Shown here piece by piece: positions 2,518 through 40,287 of a stretch of 40,287 bases of DNA (the stretch's first letter is position 1; every line of letters begins with the position of its first letter). The notes beneath the pieces are model-generated. The model worked only from the letters and a program-made list of their open reading frames with translations, made no database searches and was not told the DNA's origin. Origin of the DNA: Cirrosporium novae-zelandiae (Eukaryota); NCBI GenBank assembly GCA_026023565.1, contig JAPETS010000065.1, positions 62,001 to 102,287 on the forward strand. The letters are read 5' to 3'. The position numbers and the translations under genes are program-made.

Positions 2518-5517
2518 ATGCATCAACATCCGCGTGGGCCACTGCCAACCACGGCAGCTCGGGGGAATTCACCTTGGACTAACCCATCAGCACAAACAAA
2601 TAATTCCAGAGACTCCGGACAGGAAAGCCTAGGTTCTAGTCCATCCAGTGTGGATCCTCGCACGCTGGATCAAGGAGAGTTAGAGGGACAGCTAACTTCA
2701 GCTAGCATGAGAGAAGCAGTCGCCAAACTGAATCAAGTTGTTCAGGTATGTCTTGTAGAAGAGCCTGTTGAGGAGAGAGCTAACCAGTCTTTTACAGAAC
2801 TATCATACCAAAGCAGCACTAATCATACTTCAATCCCGAATATTATTGCCTCCTACCTATACCAAAGGAACTGATACGAAACGCATTAATAGATGGGTAA
2901 GTTGAGAAACACATCTGCCATGCACTCATTCATTATTTCTTCTAGAAAATTGATTTTACTTTGCTCTGAATGCTTGTATGTACTAACATGCTCTTGATAG
3001 TTTAATGTCGAAATCGACGAGACAGATGCCTTGAAAGATTATCTCAAGCTTTGGAAGCAATCTGACTATCTTGTCCATCGTCCACCTACTCTGTACATTG
3101 ATATTTACCTCGACACAAGCCAGCTTACATCAAGCGAAAGTCTTGTGATAATAGACGGGCAAGAGAAACGTTGGGACGTCTTGACAAGCCTGAATGCTGC
3201 AGGTGGACATAACATTGAGGGCAAATCGGCGGACCAGAAGCGAGTCATCCTCGAGCGATGGAAGATCGAACTGGGGAATCCAGCAAGTCCTTTACCTGCT
3301 GATCTTGGACTGATATTGCCAACCGTGTACAAGAAAAGCATTGTCCTGTTCAGGTCTCTTTATATGTACTGTCAGTTGATGCCTGCCTGGAAGTTTGGGA
3401 AACGGCTACCGAAACTCAGATCAAACAGCTCCTTAAAGCTGAGTTTCGACGTTTTCCCTGATAATTTACAAACATCTCATTCCGACGGCTTGTATGCACC
3501 TCTTTACGAAGGGAGTGACCCGGTCGTAGACACATTTTCTTTAGGAGGCACAGATTCGCCGGCCGGCCCTCTGTCAATACAAGTAACTTACCGGAAAAAC
3601 TGCGACTTTCGTGTTGATGATTCGGAAGCTCTATTGAGTTCTCATTTCATGGGTATGGACGATGAATTTTTCAGACCATCCCTGGAATCGAATCGAGGCC
3701 AACCCTTGCCTCAACGTGAACCTACAAGAGAAGCTGGCTCTGTTCCCCTTGAACGAATGGGATACCAAAACGAGCCCGATAGAGGACAAGCATACGGAAG
3801 CATGTCTACCTTCCACCAACCAGGGCCAGCAGCTGGTTCAAGTCCAATATCTGCTCTGAGAGCTGCCAGTAATACTGGCCCCCAAAGTCCGGTAGGATCT
3901 GCGCCGCGCCCAAGGCCATCCAGTCTTCGATCCATGCAAAACTCCAAGTCATCATTGAGATCAGTCGAGAATGCTTCTGGTCCACCAAGACGCCCATCCG
4001 TATCTTTTTTTAAAGCTCCAACTTTGTCTTCATCTCCGTCACCAGGAGAACAGTTAGTTCCACCATCCCCAAGAAATTCTCTCAATCGCCCCTCTCCGCT
4101 CTCTGGGCTTGCAGAAGCTAGGAGTAAACAATACCAAGGCCTTGGGCATGCACCCTTGTCTCCAGCGGTCCCCCAACGAAACTTTCCTACCTCTGAAAAT
4201 GCCATTGCTTCATCTACATCAAGCTCTCCGAAGCCTGCACCTATTGCTCGGTACAGCAGTAGCTTTGGACACAGGAAAGCACGGCCATCAACTGGAGGAA
4301 GTAAAACGGAGGAAGACAATAGTAGTGGGAAGACTAGCGCTACATCCTCTGCAGCCCATCCGGGTTCTGGAACTCTTGCTGAAGGGACCGCTGGAAGTGC
4401 AGAGTCAATTCATCAAGATGATGGAAATATTGCTGACTTCTTGAGAATGATCGACTCTAAAAGAGATCTCAAAAGTTTCCGTGCTTCAAATCCAGCTGCT
4501 TTAGAGGCTTCAACCCGTCGTACTAATGCAATACTCAACAAGGCACAACGTATGCGGGATTCCAACGCCCAACTTTCTGACTCGATGTCTTCCTCCGTCC
4601 ATCTTCACCGTTCCTCCAGTTCCTCCAGTCGCCAACTATCCAACGTTCCAGCTATGATAGTTGGTACTTCCATCTCAACATCATCCTCGCCTGGTGGAAA
4701 GCCTATTTCCCCTCATACCCCACATACGCCAGCAATCCCTTCACGTCTAAGCGCAAATAGTGTTCTAGACTATACACAACATGAAGAAGATACAGATTCC
4801 CATTCACAAGATGAGGCTGCCCCGAACTCTGAACACGGTTCAAGTGATGATACCGCTCGAGATGCTGCGAGTAATGCAATTGATATTCCCACTTCACCTC
4901 GCTCCTTCCAGCGACCATATAGGAGATCAAGTTCAGTTGCACACAGATACCGTACCTCAGGGTTCGATGAAGAAATTGGTGACATACTACCATTTGGAAC
5001 CCGTAGCGCAAGCCTTGGTGCAGACGAAAGGCCAGCTCTAAGCTTAAATGCTCTCAGAGGAATTCAGGATACTGCTGGTACTGCAACATCGACACATCAC
5101 CGGGACCAACCTCAATCTAACCCGGATGTGGGAAGTGCTGACGATAAGAAGCAAGACCATTCATCTTCTGTAGAATCACGAGAAGAGGCTCAGTTACCCA
5201 GTCGACCCTCAACAAGCTCACTTAACTCCCCGCTCCGCCCAAGACTCGGTCGTATTGGAGCCCGTGGTGGTCATACAAGCGCCCAAGGCTCTGTTACTAG
5301 TTTTACTGGCGAAGGACAAGGATCAGATCGCCGAAGTGGCCGATATAGTTTCTCCCGTCCCGGAAATAATAACCTTGATGAAGACGAACCACTACTTTTT
5401 GCCATGAGCGATTTTCGTAGTACCGATGATGGCGATCGTAGCAATAGCGGGAAGGATTCTAACTCCTCTGCAAAACGAGGAAGCCGAAGAGGGGGTGCTC
5501 CACACCCTTGGGGGTGA
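2518..5517 (+). CDS. ATG13: Autophagy-related protein 13 (N-terminal HORMA domain plus long Ser/Pro-rich disordered region), ~947 aa
   Basis: Exons 2518-2745, 2798-2896, 3001-5517, with GTATGT..GCTAAC..CAG and GTAAGT..ACTAAC..TAG introns. The spliced protein reads [80 protein letters not shown] and ends [12 protein letters not shown], all typical of Pezizomycotina Atg13. Confidence 0.93.
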
Positions 5518-18874: not shown

Positions 18875-20615
18875 ATGGGTGAACTCGAACAGCTAGAAGT
18901 ATGTTGCTCGTTTTGTTACATTTCCCTGCTTATATCCAGGTGTACGCGCCTTACTGAGACTCACTTCTTAGAAAGATTATTGTCCCCCGATTGACAGCGC
19001 CTTATTCCTGTCCATCATTAGCGATTACGATCTAGCTGTTGTCGCTGAACTTGAGGCAGCGAAGGAAGTTCTTGATCAGATCAAGTTAAGTGCGATCGAA
19101 GAGGATAACTTATTGTTCGATCCTTCAGGAAGCAGTGGTTTCGCAGCGAACAACGGCGCCTCTGAACCAACTGATTCGACCCCAGAAGGGACTACACCAA
19201 GTCATAACACGGATGTGACTGGTACATCACTCTCGCTATCTTCCTGGGGTAATGAGGATTGCGCCTCGCGTCATGGCAAAGGATCGACTTCATCCTCAGA
19301 TGAGGTTCCAAAGGACTATTTCCAACATTGTAATGCGTCGGAGGAACAGAAGATCGTGATCTTGAAGGACATGTTTAGTCGCACAGACATAGATGAATAT
19401 ACAGTGAAATCTACCCTGCGGAAAAATGGATGGGATGTGGACCGTGCCATGGAAGAGCTCCTCAACCATGTCTTTTTCTTGGATGAGGCAGGTGATACCG
19501 AAAACACAGTGACTATTCCAAAGGGAATAGATGGTTTTGGTGAAGACAATGGCTATCACCATGCCAAAGGCAAAGGAAAAGGCAAGAAAAGGAATGGCAG
19601 AAAGCTCTCCAAAACAACTGATCTACCAGGAGGTCCATCATCGTCTTCATCGTCCAGCGATAACATTAGCAGTACCAGTAAATGGGCAACAGCCCATGGG
19701 GATATTGATTTTCTCGCATCGAGAACTAGTCTCACCAAAACCTCTGTTTCTCATCGGTATCACCTTCATGGAGGATCATTATCAGCAACGATCACAAGTC
19801 TAATTACCGATACGATTTCTGACGCAACCAAATACGTAGTTACCGATCCTATGCTGGAAGAAAATACTACAGAACTAAAAAATGACTTTCCGTCTTTGCC
19901 TGTAGCTCATGTCCGCGCTCTCCTTATTCTCACGTCCCCGTCGACTGCATCGGCCCACGAGTTGGCAAAAGCGCTCCTGGCAAATTCCTGTTCTAGTACC
20001 GGCGCACTTGTCCCAAATCCCAGCGGCGGCTTAAAAATCATTCTCAAACCGGCGCCTATAGACCTCTCCTCGTCTCCCCCTACATCTCCGACAGCGAATC
20101 ACACAGGCATCGGTTCGGCACTTTCCCATTCCACAGCTGCGCACCTTGCCAGCACACATTCCCTTGCCGGCACTACTGCTTTCAACCAGGCATCATCCGC
20201 ATACCGGCGCGCAAAATCCGACCACTTATACGGTGCCGTAGCGGCATATTATTCCTCCGTAGGCCGTGAGCACGCCACAAAAGCGTCGGCCCTCCGCTCT
20301 TCCGCCGCCGATGCACTCGTGGCTTCGCAATCCCGGTCCGACCAACTCGATCTCCATGGCGTGAGTGTCAAGGATGGAGTCCGAATAGCAAAGCAGAGGG
20401 TAGAAAGTTGGTGGGATGGTTTGGGGGAAGATAGGGCTCGCGGGTGGGGTGGGAGCGCGGGAAGAGAATTTAGAATTGTTACGGGATTGGGAAGACATAG
20501 CGAGGGGGGGCGTGCGAAGCTGGGACCTGCGGTTGGAAAGATGTTGGTGGGTGAAGGTTGGAGAGTTGAAATAGGGAGTGGGGTTGTTGTTGTGCGTGGC
20601 AAGGCAAGAAGATGA
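18875..20615 (+). CDS. CUE2: CUE + DUF1771 + Smr domain endonuclease (Cue2-like, no-go decay), ~555 aa
   Basis: Exon 1 18875-18898 (MGELEQLE), intron 18899-18971, exon 2 18972-20615 (KDYCPPIDSALF..). CUE-like motif LKDMF..VKSTL..DVDRAMEELLN. DUF1771-like A..AYRRAKSD..YGAVAAYY. Smr domain LDLHGVSVKDGV..IVTGLGRHS..G. Confidence 0.8.
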
Positions 20616-20781: not shown

Positions 20782-22171
20782 AACAACCAAACGATTTTGG
20801 GGACTTATAATCGGAGCGCGACTCCAATATCTTCTGCCTTGGGCGTTGGATAAAAATATTCAATATTAGAAAGAGTTTTTTATAACCTTTCTTTCGTGAT
20901 TATTTGATACCACTGCTGCGATGAATAGAGATCAATGACAAATAAGTTAATAGTACCCAGATACCAACCACTAAGAAAACTTCCTTTTTCAGTATTGTAT
21001 CGTGACTTTCAATACTTTTAAAACCCGAACCCTCCCTTCCATCAGCAAAAAAATAAAATAAAAAAAATGACAGTAACTAACTTTATACCCCCCCCCCCTC
21101 CCCCCCTTCATTACACCCAATCCCCTTCACTCGTCGACTCATTGAACAACTAGCAAACATCTCATCTCATCCTCTCCCCCCTTCCATTATTAAATTTATT
21201 TTATCTGCAAAATGGAACAAACCATCCACTCATTCCAGCTAGCGACAGGGTAATTAAAAGATAATTAAATCTGACGGGATCAGGAGGAGGACCTCCCGGC
21301 GTACTGTATGTGTATATTCCAACTTACCAAAGCAAGCATGTATGAACGGCTTCCGGGCTTTAGCTTTAGGTCCCCATGAACAGAGTAATTAGAACCGCAC
21401 TCGCCTTACTAATTATCATTGCCCTCGACCGAAATTTCCCACCTACTACCTATCTATTACTTGTACTGTACCTAAAGCTCTACTCCCCTTACCAATGGGA
21501 TGAATATGCCACCGCCACCCCGTTCTTGACGTTCCCCAGTATATATATGTCTGGTGCTCCAATCTTGTTTGAATAAAAACATCACCCTAATCCCAAATCG
21601 CGGAAATATAAAACCTAATAACTCCGTTCCAACTCTCCCCCGAACCCTATTAACTACCACCATCATGGATCGCGTATCCCGTACGTATTTATTACTAAAG
21701 AAGCAGAAAAAGCATCCATATAGGAAATAAACGCATGAGATATGTATATGTATATATTCTTTTTGCACTAGCATTGGCAGTTATAATAATTATAATAGAG
21801 GAGGAAGAAGAAGAAGGAGAAGGGTGGGTTAAATACTACGAGTCTACGAGAGACTAGAGTGGAGTGTTAAGGATATAGTTATTAGGGCTGGGGGGCTTGG
21901 GGGAGGCTATTTAAAGAATAATTTAGAAATGAGAAGTTTGTGTTTGAAATATCCCTTTGTTATTGTGGTTGTTAGGATTTCTGTAGAGTAGAAACCCCTA
22001 AGAAGTGTTATACTTCCTCCCCTGGCTTGCTGAGCTCTAGAGCTCAACTAACTAACTATATATGAATGAATGGATTTTTTTCTTATCCTGGACCCGAGAC
22101 ATTAACTTTATCCTTGTATCTTCGTTGGTTGATAGTTGTGGATATGAGGATGTCTGAAAAAAAGAAGCCAT

Positions 22172-23938
22172 TCAATGAGTTGCAAGAGCTTCGGTAGCAT
22201 CTTGGATTCTCTTTCCTAATCCTGGATTGACTCGGGTGAACATTTCTGTAATGAAGGAGGAAGGGAAGTGTTAGCCTGTTGTGCTTTGTTGTGCCTGTGC
22301 GGGTGATTGATATGATGGGGGGGGAATTCTTACTGTATGTTTCTTTCCTACCCTCGGGGATTGCACCCTTCAAATGGCATGAGATGTTGTATATAAAATT
22401 ATCCTGCTGCCCGTTCTGTTTCCCCAGTACTTCCCAGAACATTCTTGGCTGTTCGAAATCCGCATCTGTGACCTCCGAGGTGAAAATGCAAACCTCGCCG
22501 ACCCACCTATCGTGCTGGCTCTGGCCTTTAGCGCCGATGTTACCTTTGAACGTGACGGGTCGACGTGTGGAGCGGACATAGTTAGGGTCCCCTCCGTAGT
22601 TGGACTTCAAGGTCATGAGGCCGTCACGCTGATAGGGACAGTATACCGGGGAGACTGCGGCGTTGCAAGGGAGCTGTTGATAGTTCACTCCCAGGCGATA
22701 GCGCGCCGCGTCTGGGTATGCGAACATGCGGGCTTGGAGGAGAGGATCTGCGGAGGGTGCGATGCCGGGGACCATGGTGGAGGGGGAGAAGGAGGCTTGC
22801 TCGATGTCTGCGAAGTAGTTTTCTGGGTTTTTGTTTAGGGTTAATTTGCCGACCGGGACGAGGGGGAAGTCGACGTGTGGCCACACTTTTGTCACGTCGA
22901 AGATGTTCCAGCGATAGCTTTCTGCTTCCGATGGGCTCATGACTTGGATGTAGAGGGTCCAGCTTGGGTAATCGCCGCGCTCGATGGCGGTGAAGAGGTC
23001 TTCTGTGTGGTGGTCTGGGTGCTCGCCTGCGAGTTTGACGGCTTCATCTTGGGCGAGGGTTTTGATCCCTTGGTTGGTTTTGAAGTGGAATTTGACGTAG
23101 CTAAAGGTTCCATCGTCCTTGGTTAGTTTGTAGGTGTGGTTACCGTAGCTATTGAGGTTGCGAACAGAGGTGGGGACTCCTCGGTCACTAAAGAGTACCA
23201 TTAGTGCGTGGATTCCTTCTTGGTTGTTGTTGTGGAAATCCCAGAACATGGTGGAGTCAGATAGATTGCTTCGTGGGTTTCGTTTATGTGACCGGTTTAC
23301 GGATGGGAATTTGACCGGATCACGGACGAAGAAGATGGGGATGTCGTTGAAGACAAAGTCCTGGTTGCCTTCTTCGGTGTAGATTTTCATGCCCCATCCT
23401 CGGACATCTCTAACGCTATCTGCAGAACCTCGTTCAGGCCCGACTGTGGATATGCGCAAAAGGACTTTCGACTTTTTGCCAATGCCGTTGAGGAAGGCAG
23501 CGGAGGTGAGAGATGAGATGTCGTGGGTTACCTCGAATTCTCCGAATGCGCCAGCAGCTTTAGCATGGACGACTCTATTATTATAGCTTGTTTCAATTGA
23601 AAATCCTTATACATATGAGCTTAATGATGGTATGGGAAGGGTATACCGTTCTGGAATACGCTCTCGAGAGAAGTGAGCTAGCGTCTCAATAAGCTGTGTA
23701 TCTTGAAGAAGGAGAAGCCCCTCAATGGATTGGCGCCCGAAGTGCTGAACCGTAGTTGGATCCGCATATGGGCATCCTAGAGTAGGTCAATTCATGGTCA
23801 AAAACCTCTTGGTAGATGCGATGGATGAACCTTCAGCCAAGGTATAGGTTGGTGCATCTGTATACTAGCTTATCGTCAGTCTACGTTTTCAACAAAAGCG
23901 ATTCAAGGGAGGATATAAACTTGAGTATTAGAATCCAT
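22172..23938 (-). CDS. Monofunctional small-subunit heme catalase, ~498 aa
   Basis: Exons 23938-23921, 23864-23831, 23776-23647, 23574-22334, 22245-22172. Active-site signature LAHFSRERIPER|VVHAK, then STVGPERGSADSVRDVRG, DFVFNDIPIFFVRDP and the proximal Tyr motif LQARMFAYPDAARYRLG. Spliced C-terminus is ..DATEALATH with no PTS1. Confidence 0.95.
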
Positions 23939-26339: not shown

Positions 26340-28406
26340 ATGGCAACTTCTATCTCCAAAGAGTATGATTTCATTGTTGTTGGGGGTAAAGGACTTGAAT
26401 GATTTCTCACGAAAGTCGTAGCTAATTTGTGAATTAGGTGGCACGGCTGGTAATGTTGTTGCTGGTCGCCTAGCAGAGAACCAAAAGGTTTCAATTCTTG
26501 TAATTGAAGCTGGCAAAGGGTTTATTTCTCCTTAATACTCTTATAATGCATATTCTACTGACACCAAGTCCACAACACCAGGAACCCCAGCGAAATTCCC
26601 GAAATCACCACACCAGCCCGTGCTTTCTCCCTCAGGGGTAGCGAGTATGACTGGGCTTACAAAACAACCATGATAGATCGGCCCGATTACGAGCGTGTCG
26701 AGAAACCGAATACCAGAGGCAAAGTTCTTGGTGGCAGCAGTTGTCTCAATTACTATACGTGGGTGAGGGGAAGTAAGCCCACTTTCGATGACTGGGCTGA
26801 ATTTGGAGGAGACACTTGGAATTGGGAGAACTGCAAGGAGTATTTTAACGCGGTGAGTATGCTTTATAGTGCATGAAGACTTTTTGCCAATGCTCAGACC
26901 ATAGGACTGACGATTACATTCAATAGCCTGCCTCATACCATGACGATAGCACCCTCTACAACCCGTCCCTCAGTAAAGTGGGCCACAAAGGACCTCTTGA
27001 CATTGCTATCTCTGACATGGTCCCTGAACTGGAGCCATTTCGTCAAGCTCTAACGAAAGCCTGGGTTAGCAAAGGACAGAAGCTCACTGAGGATATCTAC
27101 TCAGGCACAGTGAACGGGCTAGTCAAATGCATGAACACAATCTACAAAGGAGTTCGCTCATCTAGTGGAATTTTCATCAAGGGGAAGCCGAACGTGACAT
27201 TGTTGAGCCAGACTTTTTCCAAGAAGCTTGTTATTGAATCTAGAAAGGTTGTTGGAGTTACAGTCATTGGACCTGATGGGGAAGACGTCACATTCAAAGC
27301 GAAAAACGAAGTCATCGTTTCGCAGGGCGTCTTCGAGACACCTAAACTCCTTATGCTATCCGGAATTGGACCGGAAGAAGCCTTATCCGCTCACAATATC
27401 CAACCCGTCGTCATATCGCCCCACGTCGGTCAAAATCTCCTCGACCATCCCCTTATGCCATATGTTCGCCGTCTAAAGGATGGATATGGACTTGACGGTC
27501 ACCTGTTACGTGCAGGTCCAATGAACTCTGCAGCCATTTCTGCCTATCGAAAGAACCACACCGGTCCTCTCAGCAGCGGTCTCCTAGAACTCGTCGGATT
27601 CCCACGCATCGACAAGTACCTACAGACAAGCAAGGAATACGTTGCATACAAGAAAGCCCATGGAGATATCGATCCCTTCGGACCCTCAGGCCAACCGCAC
27701 TTCGAGATCGACTTCGTAGTAAGCTTAGCCCACTTCCCCACCCCCCCTTCTCCCTCAAACCTAACCCATACTAACCCTACCAACCAAGCCCATGTTCTCA
27801 GACGCCTTCCAATGGCACATCCCGACCCCACCCACCGGGGACTACCTAACTATCCTCGTCGACCTAGTACGCCCCCTATCCCGCAACGGGACCGTCACCC
27901 TCAACAGCACCAACCCCTTAGATCAACCGCACATAAACCTCAACTTCTTCTCCAACGACCTAGACCTCGTCGCCCTGCGCGAGGGCGTCCGCTTCGTTGA
28001 TGAAATCTTAACCCAGGGAGAAGGCATGAAGGATCTAATCGGCGAAGATTATCCTTGGCCAATGCCCCGCCATTCGGATGAGGCGATGAAGACGGCGATT
28101 TTGGAGAGGAGTCAGACTGGATTCCGTAAGTCCAAGCCTTATTTTCTCTCCCCCTCCTCTTTTTATACCCTATTCACTTTCCAAAAACCTAACAAACCAG
28201 ATCCATGCGGAACATGTCGTCTCTCCCCAAACATCGAAACAGGAGTCGTCGATCACGCGCTCAAAGTCCATGGAGTAAAAGATCTGCGTGTCGTTGATGC
28301 GTCTGTCATCCCTGTGATTCCGGATTGTCGGATCCAGAATTCGGTTTATATGATTGCGGAGAAGGTGGCGGATATGATTAAGAAGGAGTATGATGAACTT
28401 TATTAG
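26340..28406 (+). CDS. GMC oxidoreductase of the formate oxidase (FOD) type, ~577 aa
   Basis: Exons 26340-26385, 26438-26519, 26582-26852, 26927-27718, 27789-28125, 28201-28406. FAD motif DFIVVGGGTAG. The segments EKPNTRGKVLGGSS.LNY.TW, SGLLELVGFPRID, GQPHFE.DFV, AFQWH.PTP, QTGFHPCG and IPDCRIQNSVY closely match Aspergillus oryzae formate oxidase as I recall it, including its His/Arg active-site pair. No signal peptide. Confidence 0.88.
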
Positions 28407-29330: not shown

Positions 29331-30449
29331 TTAATCTTTATAATCTGTTTCAGTGCATGGACGGATGTTTTCGGCGAGTTTTTCAAATTCCACTAATTGA
29401 TCCTTCGGAATGGGATAGGAGTATTCAGGGCCAGGGTACTCGCGAGTTTTGACCTCTTCTATGATCCCGTATATGTTAGCCGTACGTTGCATGTACACTA
29501 TTGAAAGGAAGGAGTATATACCCTTATATTGTGTGATAGCCTTCATACTCTCTCCCCATACATCTCCGTACTTCTTCACGAACTTGGGAAGGAAACGACC
29601 CGGTGGAAAATGCCCAGTCATGTCAACCTGTACCAATACTTGTCCTGAGCAGCCATTTCCAGCTCCAATACCAATAGTCGGGATCTTTAGTTTTGATGTA
29701 ACTATTTGTGCCACCTCTGCTGGTACTGCTTCCAGAACCATGCCAAAGCATCCCGCGTCTTGTAGAGCATAGGCGTCACGCAGGAGGTTCAACGCAGAGG
29801 CTGTAGTCTTGCCTTGGACGCGGAAGCCACCAAGGAAATGTTGCCGTTGGGGAGTAAGGCCGATATGACCGAGAACAGGTATCCCAGCACGAGTGATTGT
29901 GCGAATTGTTGAGGCCATGCAAGCCCCTCCTTCTAGCTTGATAGAGGACATTCGACCTTCTTTGATGACACGGATAGCACTCATCAAAGCTTGAGAGGGA
30001 GAAATTTCGTATGTTCCCATGGGTAGATCACCAACGGTAAAGGCCCCTTTAGTTGCACGTGCAACGCTCCTACAGTGTAGAATCATGTCGTCGAGGACCA
30101 CTTCGCTAGTATCTTCCATCCCAAGCGCAACCATAGCAAGGCTGTCCCCGACCAGAATCATGTCCATACCGGCAGCGTCGGCAACATGAGCGCTAGGGAA
30201 ATCATGGGCAGTGAGCATTGTGATGGGTTCTTTTTTTGAATACATCGAGTGCAAGGTATGGATGGTGACTTTCTTGCGCTGGTTGATGGCAGGATCACCC
30301 ATCGGCGAGTGGGAGCTATGTCGAACCTGAGGCTGAGACGACATAATAAGCCATGGCGAAAGGTAACAACGGTTCGTGGAGTTGTTTTTTGATATTGATA
30401 TAGCCCTGTTGAGAATGTTCCTCGAGGGTAGTAGTGGTCGCAAAGCCAT
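29331..30449 (-). CDS. ECM31: 3-methyl-2-oxobutanoate (ketopantoate) hydroxymethyltransferase, PanB family, with mitochondrial-like presequence, ~351 aa
   Basis: Motifs ITMLTAHD, ILVGDSL.MV.LG, GDLPMG, KLEGG, GHIGLTPQ, IPTIGIGAG, PKFVK. One in-frame 63-nt intron at 29521-29459 (GTATAT..GCTAAC..TAG). Confidence 0.95.
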   Translation of the reverse strand: MALRPLLPSRNILNRAISISKNNSTNRCYLSPWLIMSSQPQVRHSSHSPMGDPAINQRKKVTIHTLHSMYSKKEPITMLTAHDFPSAHVADAAGMDMILVGDSLAMVALGMEDTSEVVLDDMILHCRSVARATKGAFTVGDLPMGTYEISPSQALMSAIRVIKEGRMSSIKLEGGACMASTIRTITRAGIPVLGHIGLTPQRQHFLGGFRVQGKTTASALNLLRDAYALQDAGCFGMVLEAVPAEVAQIVTSKLKIPTIGIGAGNGCSGQVLVQVDMTGHFPPGRFLPKFVKKYGDVWGESMKAITQYKGIYSFLSIVYMQRTANIYGIIEEVKTREYPGPEYSYPIPKDQLVEFEKLAENIRPCTETDYKD

Positions 30450-31471: not shown

Positions 31472-32483
31472 ATGAGTAGTCCTAAGAGAAGAATCGAGAC
31501 GGATGTGAGTATGGCTTGGCTACACAAGAAAGAAACTGGATACTGTTAGGAGATTGGTGCTGATAATAGCTTTCTGGGGTTCTTATAGGTGATGAAGTAA
31601 GTATCGAAGGATTTCATACAATATCCTCAATATACTAATCGTTTAATAGGATGTATGTTATCTATAACAAACCCTCAATCAGGGGGTTGCTATCATCATC
31701 AATCGTGATGGCTCTCGCTAACTTGATGACCAAAGGTTGATGAGTGACTATGAAGTGACACTCGTAAATGATAACAGTTAGTCTACGCCTTCATTATACT
31801 ACAGTAATCTCTAACATAAAAACAGTGTTTGTCTTAATCACATCCCTTGGCCTGGAGGGCTATATAATGTCAGGATGCTTATTGTCTTAATAGGCAAGAA
31901 TTTTACGTCCGCTTCAAAGGGCCAAGTGAGAGTACGTCATGACCACATTTGCACATTATTAGAATATCATTGACTTAATATACTTGTAGCACCTTTTGAG
32001 GGTGGTGTCTGGAAAGTTCACGTCGAGCTACCAGATCAATACCCCTATAAGAGCCCCAGCATCGGGTTCGTGAACCGCATATTCCACCCAAACATCGATG
32101 AACTATCTGGCTCCGTCTGTCTTGATGTGATCAATCAGACTTGGTCTCCAATGTTTGATATGATCAACATTTTCGAAGTTTTTCTCCCACAGCTTCTCCG
32201 ATACCCTAATCCTACCGACCCGCTCAACGGCGAAGCAGCAGCTATGTTAATGAGGGAACCAAACATTTATAATGCCAAAGTGAAAGGTATGTTTTTCATG
32301 CGCGGCAGGAAACGTTTTATATCTAGTGGCTGGTTACTGATAGGCACAGAATATGTTGCAAAGTATGCTTCGAAAGATGCTGCAGACGAGGCAGGTGAAG
32401 ATACAGAGGAAGATGACGAGATGAGTTCTGTAGGCAGCTTTAAATCAGAAGATGAGCCTGCTGGCACTATGGATGAGGTATGA
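31472..32483 (+). CDS. UBC8: Ubiquitin-conjugating enzyme E2 (Ubc8/UBE2H family), 184 aa, 8 exons including microexons
   Basis: Exons 31472-31504, 31589-31596, 31650-31652, 31736-31776, 31826, 31894-31931, 31990-32286, 32350-32483 give [95 protein letters not shown].. and an acidic tail. Confidence 0.93.
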
Positions 32484-37562: not shown

Positions 37563-40287
37563 TCAAGGTGGTCCCATGTGACTTCCTGGATTACCTCCCG
37601 GGCCTCCCCAAGCACCCCCCCCTGGGCTGTCTCCCGGATTTCCCCATGGACCCCCCCCTGGGCTACCCCAGTCGCCCCAGGGATTACCCCAGTCCCCTGG
37701 GGGCGTGACATCGCAATCAGTTTGGCCTACTGAGTCTGGATTTAGTAATGCACTGTATACCCCTTCATGTCCGGTACTGGCGTCGGGGTCTGGGACTGAG
37801 GACTTGAGGAAGCAGTTATGTTCCTCGAAGTTATCGTGGAAAGTAATTCCTTGGCATGGAATAGTCCAATCTTGGTTGGCATCAGTACAGACATCAAGGC
37901 AGGTATCAAAGTTTGGAACGTGAAAGGAGGTGAAATCGTAACCGGGGAATTCATGTCCATGGTGGATAGAGAATTCTTGGCAACCTGGCTTGGTGACGAC
38001 GGAACCATCTGGATATGGATAATTAGTGTTAACAGGGGGTTTTGGCGCCTTGCTGGAGGATTCCGGCGGTGACGGTATCTGGCTAGCAGAGGATGGCAAC
38101 TTTACCCAACTTGTTCGGAAAGATGGTCCAACCCAACTAGACTCAGAGGGTTCAATCCAAATAGTTTTTATAGATGGTCCAGCCCAATTAGATTCAGAAG
38201 GTTCAATCCGGATAGTAGTTGGTGGTGGTTCTACCCAACTAGATTCAGAGGGTTCAATCCAAATAGTTTTTATAGATGGTCCAGCCCAACTGAATTTAGA
38301 AGATTCAGTCCAGATAGTTTTTGTAGATGGTCCAACCCAACTAGGTTCATAGGATTCGGTCCAAATAGTTCTCGTAGATGGTCCAGCCCAACTAGACTGG
38401 GAGGGTTCAATCTGGGTAGTAGTTGGAAGTGGTTCTACCCAACTAGATTCAGAGGGTTCAATCCAAATAGTTTTTATAGATGGTCCAGCCCAACTAGATT
38501 CATAGGATTCGGTCCAAATAGTTCTCGTAGATGGTCCAGCCCAACTAGACTGGGAGGGTTCAATCTGGGTAGTAGTTGGAAGTGGTTCTACCCAACTAGA
38601 TTCATAGGATTCGGTCCAAATAGTTCTCGTAGATGGCCCGACCCAATTAGACTCAGAAGATTCAGTCCAGATAGTTTTTGTAGATGGTCCAACCCAATTA
38701 GACTCAGAAGATTCAATCTGGGTAGTAGTTGGAAGTAGTACTACCCAACTAGATTCAGAAGGCTCAGTCCAGATAGTTTTTGTAGATGGCCCAGCCCAGT
38801 TAGACTGGGATGGCTCAGTCCAAATAGTTCTCGTAGATAGCCCGACCCAATTAGATTGGGAGGACTCAGTCCAGATAGTTTTTGTAGATGGTCCAGCCCA
38901 ACTAGGTTCATAGGATTCGGTCCAAATAGTTCTCGTAGATGGCCCGACCCAATTAGATTGGGAGGACTCAGTCCAGATAGTTTTTGTAGATGGTCCAGCC
39001 CAACTAGGTTCATAGGATTCGGTCCAAATAGTTCTCGTAGATGGCCCGACCCAATTAGATTGGGAGGACTCAGTCCAAATAGTTTTTGTAGATGGCCCAA
39101 CCCAGTTAGACTGGGATGATTCAGTCCAAATGGTTTTTGTAGATGGTCCGACCCATGTTGAAAACGATGATATCCAGCTGGAAGAATATGGAGATTGCCA
39201 ACTTGAGAATGATTGTGCCCAACTAGAGGATGTTATACTAGAGCTTGACCATATATTTGAGGTTGATACTAAGTAGGTCGTCGTTGTAGTAGAATATATA
39301 GCGCTTGTTGGAGTTGTAATTGTGGTTGTGGCCGTAGTAGTTGAAGTTGGGCTTGCAGTAATGGTTACAGTTGTGATTATAGTGTTGATCGATGTAATTG
39401 CTGTTGTATATGCGCTCGTCCAGGTTGGGGAAATAGTTATAGAATTTGACGTGCTTGCAGTTGGGGTTGTAGTGATGGTTACGGTTGTGATTATCGTATT
39501 GAACGATGTAATTGCTGTTGTATATGTGCTCGGCAAGGTTGGAGTCTTGACTGTAGATGTGGCCGTAGTTGTGGCTGTAGTTATGGCTGTAGTTGCCGTT
39601 GTATACGTGCTTGTCAAAGTCGGGGAAATAGTTATAGACTTTGACGTGCTTGTAGTTGTATTTGCATATGTAGTTATAGTCGTCGTTACAGTATTGATTG
39701 ATGTAATCGCTGTTGTAGACGTGTTCGTAAAAGTCGGAGAGATAACTAAAGAACTTGACGTTCTTACAGTCGTGTTTGGAGTTGTAACTGTAGTTGCATT
39801 CGCAGTTGTGGTTACAGTCGTGGTTACAGTATTGATCGATGTAATCGCTGTTGTAGACGTGTTCGTAAAAGTCGGAGAGATAACTAAAGAACTTGACCTG
39901 TTGGTAGTCGTGTTTGTAGTTTTAGTTGTAGTTGAAATTGTGCTTGCAGTCGTGCTTGGAATTGTAGCTGTAGTTGAAATTGTACTTGCAGTCGTGCTTG
40001 GAGTTGTAGCTGTAGTTGGGCTTACAGTAATGGTTACAGTCGTGGTTGCAGTATTGATCGATGTAATCGCTGTTGTAGACGTGTTCGTGAAAGTCGGAGA
40101 AATAATTATAGAACTTGACCTGTTGGTAGTCGTGTTTGTAGTTTTAGTTGTAGTTGAAACTGTACTTGCAGTCGTGCTTGGAGTTGTAGCTGTAGTTGGG
40201 CTTACAGTAATGGTTACAGTCGTGGTTGCAGTATTGATCGATGTAATCGCTGTTGTAGACGTGTTCGTGAAAGTCGGAGAAATAATT
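37563..40287 (-). CDS. 5'-truncated mucin/adhesin-like Ser/Thr-rich tandem-repeat protein with a C-terminal PAN/Apple-like domain and Gly/Pro/Trp tail
   Basis: The window-edge sequence (IISPTFTNTSTTAITSINT..) is in the same frame as the tracked ORF, which stops at 37563, so the ORF-track start at 39617 is not the true start. PAN/Apple-like Cys pattern: CQEF..GYDF..FDTCLDVC..CQGITF..CFLKS. Confidence 0.8.
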   Translation of the reverse strand, partial: IISPTFTNTSTTAITSINTATTTVTITVSPTTATTPSTTASTVSTTTKTTNTTTNRSSSIIISPTFTNTSTTAITSINTATTTVTITVSPTTATTPSTTASTISTTATIPSTTASTISTTTKTTNTTTNRSSSLVISPTFTNTSTTAITSINTVTTTVTTTANATTVTTPNTTVRTSSSLVISPTFTNTSTTAITSINTVTTTITTYANTTTSTSKSITISPTLTSTYTTATTAITTATTTATSTVKTPTLPSTYTTAITSFNTIITTVTITTTPTASTSNSITISPTWTSAYTTAITSINTIITTVTITASPTSTTTATTTITTPTSAIYSTTTTTYLVSTSNIWSSSSITSSSWAQSFSSWQSPYSSSWISSFSTWVGPSTKTIWTESSQSNWVGPSTKTIWTESSQSNWVGPSTRTIWTESYEPSWAGPSTKTIWTESSQSNWVGPSTRTIWTESYEPSWAGPSTKTIWTESSQSNWVGLSTRTIWTEPSQSNWAGPSTKTIWTEPSESSWVVLLPTTTQIESSESNWVGPSTKTIWTESSESNWVGPSTRTIWTESYESSWVEPLPTTTQIEPSQSSWAGPSTRTIWTESYESSWAGPSIKTIWIEPSESSWVEPLPTTTQIEPSQSSWAGPSTRTIWTESYEPSWVGPSTKTIWTESSKFSWAGPSIKTIWIEPSESSWVEPPPTTIRIEPSESNWAGPSIKTIWIEPSESSWVGPSFRTSWVKLPSSASQIPSPPESSSKAPKPPVNTNYPYPDGSVVTKPGCQEFSIHHGHEFPGYDFTSFHVPNFDTCLDVCTDANQDWTIPCQGITFHDNFEEHNCFLKSSVPDPDASTGHEGVYSALLNPDSVGQTDCDVTPPGDWGNPWGDWGSPGGGPWGNPGDSPGGGAWGGPGGNPGSHMGPP
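38085..39155 (-). repeat. Coding tandem repeat: ~21 copies of a 51-bp (17-aa) unit
   Basis: Units W[VA]GPST[KR]TIWTESSQSN and the variant WVEPLPTTTQIEPSQSS. The first Trp codon is at 39155 and the 21st at 38135, exactly 20 x 51 bp apart. Confidence 0.93.
39340..40287 (-). repeat. Coding Thr-rich long-period repeats (core ISPTFTNTSTTAITSINT..TVTIT), period up to ~180-220 bp
   Basis: The block GTATTGAT[C/T]GATGTAATCGCTGTTGTAGACGTGTTCGT recurs at about 39691, 39828, 40051 and 40231, with more degenerate copies toward 39380-39630. Confidence 0.88.

Follow-up and report, generated by a model that had tools for sequence, protein, structure and literature searches.

A predicted one-nucleotide exon in the UBC8 gene of Cirrosporium novae-zelandiae and its layout in related fungal loci

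The UBC8 locus of Cirrosporium novae-zelandiae raises the question of whether a single T can be an exon of its own. In the window, that is, the whole 40,287-nt stretch of contig JAPETS010000065.1 that was analysed, a lone T at position 31826 was confirmed to lie between two GT..AG introns, with an AG directly before it and a GT directly after it (AACAG-T-GTTTGT, 31821-31832). All coordinates and strings given in an earlier note on this DNA, made from the letters alone, were present exactly in the window. We consider it very probable that UBC8 is a gene of eight exons in which exon 5 is this T, placed between two ordinary short introns of the U2 type (introns A and B) that would be removed stepwise. 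The mature mRNA of C. novae-zelandiae would then contain the T of exon 5.

Gene structure and reading of the Met29 junction

As shown in Table 1, a UBC8/UBE2H-type E2 gene with eight exons and seven introns was modelled in the window, and this model was the only one with GT..AG introns throughout and an open frame. Exon 7 matched PF00179 in Pfam with an E value of 1e-31, and the HPN motif and the catalytic Cys stretch were present in the translation. The first match overall in the PDB was 2onu, an unnamed 'putative' E2 (E 6e-49). Among the named classes, UBE2H was on top, with 2z5d and 8pjn matching at E values of 4e-48 and 2.5e-46, respectively, and the other E2 classes (A/B, N and D) matched at 3e-21 or weaker. 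The named database relatives of the protein carried the labels 'E2 8' or 'E2 H'. An acidic C-terminal extension is a feature of the UBC8/UBE2H class, and an acidic C-terminal tail was present in the 184-aa model. From its predicted protein, the gene was assigned to the UBC8/UBE2H class of E2 enzymes. Yeast Ubc8 and human UBE2H act with the GID/CTLH E3 ligase.

Six other long open frames with protein matches were found in the window and are listed in Table 1. The best named relatives of the ketopantoate hydroxymethyltransferase were 64-73% identical, and several of them were lichen-associated ascomycetes; this level of identity indicates an organism without a close sequenced relative in that database.

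Table 1. Features of the UBC8 gene and other protein matches in the window (positions are those of the window).
Feature	Position	Strand	Length	Remarks
ATG13 match	3031-5517	+		long open frame
CUE/DUF1771 match, weak	19113-20615	+		long open frame
Catalase match	22083-23459	-		long open frame
GMC oxidoreductase match	26978-28000	+		long open frame
Ketopantoate hydroxymethyltransferase match	29331-30449	-		long open frame
UBC8/UBE2H-type E2 gene	31472-32483	+		8 exons, 184 aa, no internal stops
UBC8 exon 1	31472..31504	+	33 nt	
UBC8 intron 1	31505..31588	+	84 nt	GTGAGT..TTATAG
UBC8 exon 2, micro-exon	31589..31596	+	8 nt	GTGATGAA; same 8-nt exon in related loci
UBC8 intron 2	31597..31649	+	53 nt	GTAAGT..TAATAG
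UBC8 exon 3, micro-exon	31650..31652	+	3 nt	GAT; completes Lys and begins Met of VMK-M-LMSDY
UBC8 intron 3	31653..31735	+	83 nt	GTATGT..CCAAAG
UBC8 exon 4	31736..31776	+	41 nt	ends ..GAT AAC A, with A as base 1 of the Met codon
UBC8 intron A	31777..31825	+	49 nt	GTTAGT..CTCTAAC..AACAG; branch-like CTCTAAC 10 nt ahead of acceptor
UBC8 exon 5, predicted one-nucleotide exon	31826..31826	+	1 nt	T, base 2 of Met29
UBC8 intron B	31827..31893	+	67 nt	GTTTGT..GCTTAT (weak, branch-like)..TAATAG
UBC8 exon 6	31894..31931	+	38 nt	starts G (base 3 of the Met codon) CAA GAA TTT
UBC8 intron 6	31932..31989	+	58 nt	GTACGT..TTGTAG
UBC8 exon 7	31990..32286	+	297 nt	UBC core, HPN..C active-site stretch; PF00179
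UBC8 intron 7	32287..32349	+	63 nt	GTATGT..GCACAG; in-frame TAG acceptor 6 nt upstream
UBC8 exon 8	32350..32483	+	134 nt	includes TGA 32481-32483; acidic C-terminal tail
PAN-domain protein match	37563-40286	-		long open frame

With the T included, the mRNA would read ...GAT AAC A-T-G CAA GAA..., which places Met29 in the family sequence VNDN-M-QEFYV. Introns A and B were each complete, with their own donor, branch-like motif (read from the sequence), acceptor and a viable length; as a caveat, the donor GTTTGT of intron B in the window is weak, and a CTRAY branch motif is absent from this intron. All GT donors between 31745 and 31899 were combined with all AG acceptors between 31790 and 31924, for introns of at least 40 nt. 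Four single-intron solutions were in frame and free of stops, and none of the four gave the family sequence. When two introns were allowed around an internal exon of 1-12 nt, eight solutions resulted, and VNDNMQEFYV was obtained from 31777-31825 / T / 31827-31893 only. This enumeration of GT..AG combinations agrees with the claim of the earlier note that the family sequence needs the lone T. Skipping the T, with 31777-31893 removed as a single intron, shifted the frame and led to a stop in exon 7, and use of the CAG ending at 31873 ran into a TAA; the frame shift and the TAA had both been claimed in the earlier note. One solution had been overlooked: an intron at 31777-31898, with an AAG acceptor, was also in frame and gave NDN-K-FYV.

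By our own arithmetic, about 0.1 occurrences of AGTGT would be expected by chance within the ~117 nt of this interval. This is not improbable, so the window by itself cannot decide. The significance of AG-T-GT comes instead from the unique parse that yields the family sequence, together with the AGTGT by which this interval is divided not only in the window but also in each of the nine distinct interrupted loci described below.

Related loci and deposited gene models

A metagenome scan with exon 7 gave 399 confirmed relatives, and the best 80 of the 399 were analysed. Twelve of these 80 loci were interrupted at the Met codon, and 11 of the 12 had exactly the layout A-GT..AG-T-GT..AG-G: L010, L020, L026, L025, L038, L060, L068, L065, L072, L071 and L080. 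The twelfth was L049, which is described further below. L020 and L026 were 99% identical and L060 and L068 overlapped identically, so the 11 loci represent nine distinct ones. A contiguous AAY-ATG-CAR/TCG was found in 64 loci. Forty of them were intron-free in the assessed segments and transcript-like, mostly 1.0-1.6 kb long with four longer, and 24 had introns elsewhere in the gene and were genomic. The remaining four of the best 80 loci stood outside this classification, as they either lacked an N-terminal part or were too divergent. The T was missing from the Met codon in none of the best 80 loci.

The two introns separated by AGTGT measured 48-82 and 52-73 nt, respectively, in the window and the nine distinct interrupted loci, a count that omits L026, L060 and L049. 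L071 had a second AGTGT, the use of which would leave an 'intron' of 13 nt, and L038 had one further AGNGT. When inspected by eye, CTRAY-like motifs preceded the acceptors in most of the loci with this layout; intron B lacked them in the window and in a Helotiales-like group. In blastn comparisons among most of these loci, the exons matched and the introns did not align. The conserved AG-T-GT that the earlier note had proposed to look for in relatives was thus present in nine distinct loci with an invariant T. Its central proposal, a Met codon assembled from three exons as A, T and G, is backed by the unique parse, by these nine loci and by the contiguous ATG of the 64 others.

Lineages were placed by the best blastx match to named proteins, which is a rough guide and not an identification. 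On this basis, L020 and L080 were Pezizomycetes-like, L065, L072, L068 and L049 were Helotiales-like, L010 was Hypocreales- or Colletotrichum-like, and L025 was Dothideomycetes-like. The closest named proteins of the loci with the layout spanned Pezizomycetes, Leotiomycetes, Sordariomycetes and Dothideomycetes. We infer that the AG-T-GT layout is old, and the one-nucleotide exon of UBC8 is apparently widely conserved across filamentous ascomycetes. For the 24 uninterrupted genomic loci, blastx against the named proteins gave ambiguous lineage hits, and these are not used. Introns A and B were absent jointly from these 24 loci, with no clear loss of a single intron among the best 80 of 399, and this joint absence is consistent with the route of loss put forward for APC11 in plants, by way of copies of the mRNA. 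No genomic and cDNA pair from the same species was found among the best 80 of 399, the closest cross-matches being ~80% identical in nucleotides. The intron-free contigs may therefore stem in part from lineages without both introns, like the 24 genomic loci.

An error in the assembly or in sequencing at 31826, or decay of the gene into a pseudogene, could be imagined as a source of the lone T, and an indel error would also give a frame problem at the junction. Nothing specific spoke for this origin. All eight exons were open, the protein was 90-95% identical to its orthologues, and the identical layout was found in nine independent loci. We regard the chance of an artefact or a pseudogene as negligible.

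Further small exons were observed in the same gene. The 8-nt and the 3-nt exon lie just upstream of the one-nucleotide exon (Table 1). The 3-nt exon was kept as GAT or GCT in L010, L020/L026, L038, L065, L068, L072 and L080, and it was fused with the 8-nt exon in L025. The spacing from RRIETD to VNDN included the codon of the 3-nt exon in 39 of 39 measurable contigs out of the 40 intron-free ones; L062 had no RRIETD and was outside this count. The frame is preserved when the 3-nt exon is left out (VMK-LMSDY), an omission seen in many named models. An extra phase 2 intron of 45-51 nt was observed in DEL-SGSVC of exon 7 in L060, L065, L068, L071, L072, L080 and L049, and it was absent from the window.

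The deposited protein of the window gene, P0241, had 171 aa and was 100% identical on exon 7. P0241 joined exon 2 to 31894 (VMK-QEFYV), leaving out exons 3, 4 and 5 and with them 15 conserved residues of the UBC fold. For its last intron the acceptor was a TAG that lies 6 nt ahead of the CAG at 32347-32349, which added Gly-Thr (KVKGTEYV); the spacing KVKEYV was found in all intron-free relatives where it was measurable. To see how other models treat the junction, 120 longer relatives among the matches listed were surveyed, with two plant-named proteins and one from Mortierellomycota set aside. VNDNM[QS]EF was present in five of the 100 named ascomycete models listed, and a sixth, P0063, read KDDNMQEF by eye. 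It was present in 14 of the 17 unnamed proteins listed, which came from jgi, lgn or ena sources and mostly from short contigs. The faulty named models showed retained intron text, NDN-K-FYV (6), NDN-T-PF (5), VMK-QEF (1) or lost flanks, and the list of shorter relatives showed the same error types again. The expectation that gene predictors would miss such an exon was borne out by P0241 and by 95 of the 100 named ascomycete models listed. The pattern of errors is indirect evidence that the interruption may be widespread in named Pezizomycotina. It amounts to a concrete annotation error with wide reach across ascomycete UBC8 models, and studies that use such protein sets inherit a broken E2.

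The annotations could themselves be right, in that exon 2 is joined to 31894 as in P0241, or that the main form skips the T and exon 6 to give VNDN-T-PFEGG. Both joins are in frame, and VMK-QEF and NDN-T-PF were annotated in other named species as well. However, the 13-15 residues deleted by these skip forms were present in all 40 intron-free contigs among the best 80 of 399 and in 14 of the 17 unnamed jgi, lgn or ena proteins. Furthermore, exon 4, which would be skipped, has good splice sites, and its open frame is intact and conserved. It is hardly credible that one of these skip forms is the main product.

The intron at 31777-31898 was weighed in the same way. Its AAG acceptor lies 5 nt into exon 6, so that the T would remain unused, the protein would read VNDN-K-FYVRF and be two residues shorter, and the dominant cDNA junction would be other than ..AACATGCAAGAA... 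This form is in frame and free of stops in the window, and predictors chose it in the six named models counted above. Nevertheless, NDN-K-F was read in none of the best 80 of 399 loci, whether among the 64 uninterrupted loci or among the 40 intron-free contigs. The codon after Met was TCG in L020, L026 and L080, where the AAG acceptor does not exist, and CAG in L060, L065, L068 and L072, where it is out of frame. Use of this acceptor would delete the conserved MQE residues and would leave the retention of AGTGT in nine distinct loci unexplained. We judge it very unlikely, and the reading with the T as exon 5 is retained in what follows.

Order of intron removal and possible regulation

It is implausible that two spliceosomes could be accommodated at a distance of 1 nt, and for this reason introns A and B would most likely be removed stepwise; sequential removal is a reasonable inference from the layout. 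The two introns would be recognised by intron definition and excised one after another. The first AG downstream of the CTCTAAC motif was at 31824-31825. Removal of intron A in the first step would produce ..AACAT-GTTTGT, which could serve intron B as an ordinary 5' splice site, and the A at -2 and the C at -3 of this new junction would be closer to the usual donor context than the AGT of the pre-mRNA. The order B then A is also possible.

The earlier note had suggested a search for intermediates from which only one of the two introns is gone. One candidate was found, L049, and it comes from a relative only. L049 is a transcript-like contig of 1062 nt with a leader of ~137 nt and a trailer of ~260 nt, and its exon 7 was 90-93% identical to those of L065 and L072. 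Six of the eight introns of L065 and L072 were absent from it. It read ..GAC AAT A-T-GTACGT.., with the A joined to the T and intron B (57 nt) kept. The two introns that it retained were intron B, which brings a stop, and a 45-nt in-frame intron ahead of the catalytic Cys stretch in exon 7. L066, which has the same sample prefix as L049, was intron-free. In principle, L049 might represent the genome of a lineage from which six introns have disappeared, but such a loss is unlikely at so small a distance, and the contig is best read as partly spliced RNA. It is a probable splicing intermediate in which the removal of intron A preceded that of intron B; as there is only one such contig, and it belongs to a relative, we give it moderate weight. 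As a side observation, three introns were compared in the Helotiales-like group, namely A, B and the one of 45 nt, and the two kept in L049 rank among the more conserved.

The earlier note had suggested that skipping of the T could act as an on/off NMD switch for this E2. In a wider form of this idea, the cell would control whether the T is included or intron B is removed, T-skipped or B-retained transcripts would be degraded, and the dosage of Ubc8 would be set in this way. With the T skipped, a stop would arise in exon 7, ahead of the last exon-exon junction, and retention of intron B would bring a stop both in the window and in L049, which keeps this intron. In the Helotiales-like group, intron B was 78-93% identical, compared with 83-95% for the exon and 59-71% for intron A (positions of intron B compared: L049, 224-280; L068, 1175-1232; L065, 1774-1831; L072, 680-736). 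On the other hand, T-skipped sequences were found in 0 of the 40 intron-free, transcript-like contigs among the best 80 of 399, and intron B was retained in one contig only. We regard regulation of this kind as unlikely.

RNA folding was considered for the same introns. A hairpin of 8-9 bp over donor positions +3 to +6 of intron B, of about -12 kcal/mol, was predicted in L068 and L072; it was shorter in L049 and differed from the minimum-energy fold of L065. The hairpin of L068 and L072 showed no compensatory changes, which, like its absence from the predicted fold of L065, speaks against a regulatory role. Compared with shuffled sequences, the folds of the window were no more stable, with z values of +1.18 for 31765-31905, +0.93 for intron B and -1.43 for intron A; this too speaks against regulation, and no structural element is claimed.

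A broader and equally tentative idea, to which we give a low probability, is that the run of micro-exons of 8, 3 and 1 nt, far from being a frozen accident, is an ancient, selected splicing checkpoint across Pezizomycotina, in which the efficiency of splicing would set the dose of the E2 for GID/CTLH. If this were true, the one-nucleotide exon would force an order, with intron A followed by a slow intron B, and any transcript without the T or with intron B still in place would gain a stop and be destroyed. Intron B would then, in some lineages, be conserved at the level of an exon and lie in a hairpin over its own donor.

Comparison with known systems

No description of a one-nucleotide exon in UBC8 was found in full-text searches of the literature, and the supplements of the papers cited below may name further genes. 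The exon of UBC8 is apparently undescribed and new, and one-nucleotide exons as such have already been published. It would be an exon of the smallest size possible, located in a housekeeping gene and apparently retained in several classes of filamentous ascomycetes. Since many of these fungi are genetically tractable, it would become possible to test in them how a spliceosome deals with such an exon: in which order the introns are removed, whether steric exclusion operates and what part the exon nucleotide plays.

At the ratchet points of Drosophila and vertebrates, a 3' splice site directly abuts a 5' splice site, and very long introns are removed stepwise with no nucleotide left. A 5' splice site right behind a 3' splice site, and stepwise removal, would be shared by introns A and B of UBC8. 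Unlike at ratchet points, these introns have only 49 and 67 nt and the coding T is kept. A zero-nucleotide recursive splice site was rejected for UBC8, the T between AG and GT being needed in the coding sequence; since a coding nucleotide is retained, the junction is not a ratchet point.

Stwintrons consist of an external intron whose donor, branch point or acceptor is split by an internal one (PMC5587772). Like stwintrons, introns A and B are two short fungal introns in direct contact that would be excised consecutively. However, a stwintron leaves nothing between its introns, whereas UBC8 keeps one nucleotide in the predicted mRNA. The stwintron reading was rejected because intact GT and AG ends were found in introns A and B alike in the genomic sequence; each is complete in the primary transcript, and the pair is therefore not a stwintron. 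The resemblance that the earlier note had drawn is a loose one, holding for the abutting short introns and failing at the splice signals, neither intron having one interrupted.

One-nucleotide exons have been reported from other fungi. The long-read annotation of Coprinopsis cinerea contained thirteen 1-nt exons in 13 genes (PMC12230235). As in UBC8, these are 1-nt exons in nuclear genes of a fungus, and models break if they are omitted; C. cinerea is a basidiomycete, the report is a genome-wide count, and its passages on these exons give no gene names. A 1-nt exon of Fusarium CYP621A was called the first for a fungal gene; it was found via an intronless homologue and is supported by SRA reads (Nelson & Syed 2026, PMC12940212). 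Like that of UBC8, it belongs to Pezizomycotina, a phase-1 exon end meets a phase-2 start through one base, and it was missed by annotation. The two differ in that the base of CYP621A is a G in AGGGT and is described there from Fusarium orthologues only, whereas the base of UBC8 is a T in AGTGT and is found in loci whose closest named relatives belong to several classes of Pezizomycotina.

In plants, a 1-nt exon was described in Arabidopsis APC11 (Guo & Liu 2015, PMC4674806), and 1-nt exons of APC11 and VPS55 were found across land plants, where annotation had missed them (Yu et al. 2022, PMC8831610). The steric argument for intron-defined, stepwise removal was also made for Arabidopsis APC11 (PMC4674806), and intronless homologues in plants were attributed to the loss of both introns at once, mediated by reverse transcripts (PMC8831610). 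APC11, VPS55 and UBC8 share a single nucleotide between GT..AG introns within a conserved codon, deep phylogenetic conservation, and absence from annotation. The plant exons were proven by RT-PCR, mutagenesis or RNA-seq, whereas that of UBC8 is predicted by sequence comparison. UBC8 further differs from APC11 and VPS55 in that it is a fungal gene and in that exons of 3 and 8 nt lie just upstream of the predicted one-nucleotide exon in the same gene.
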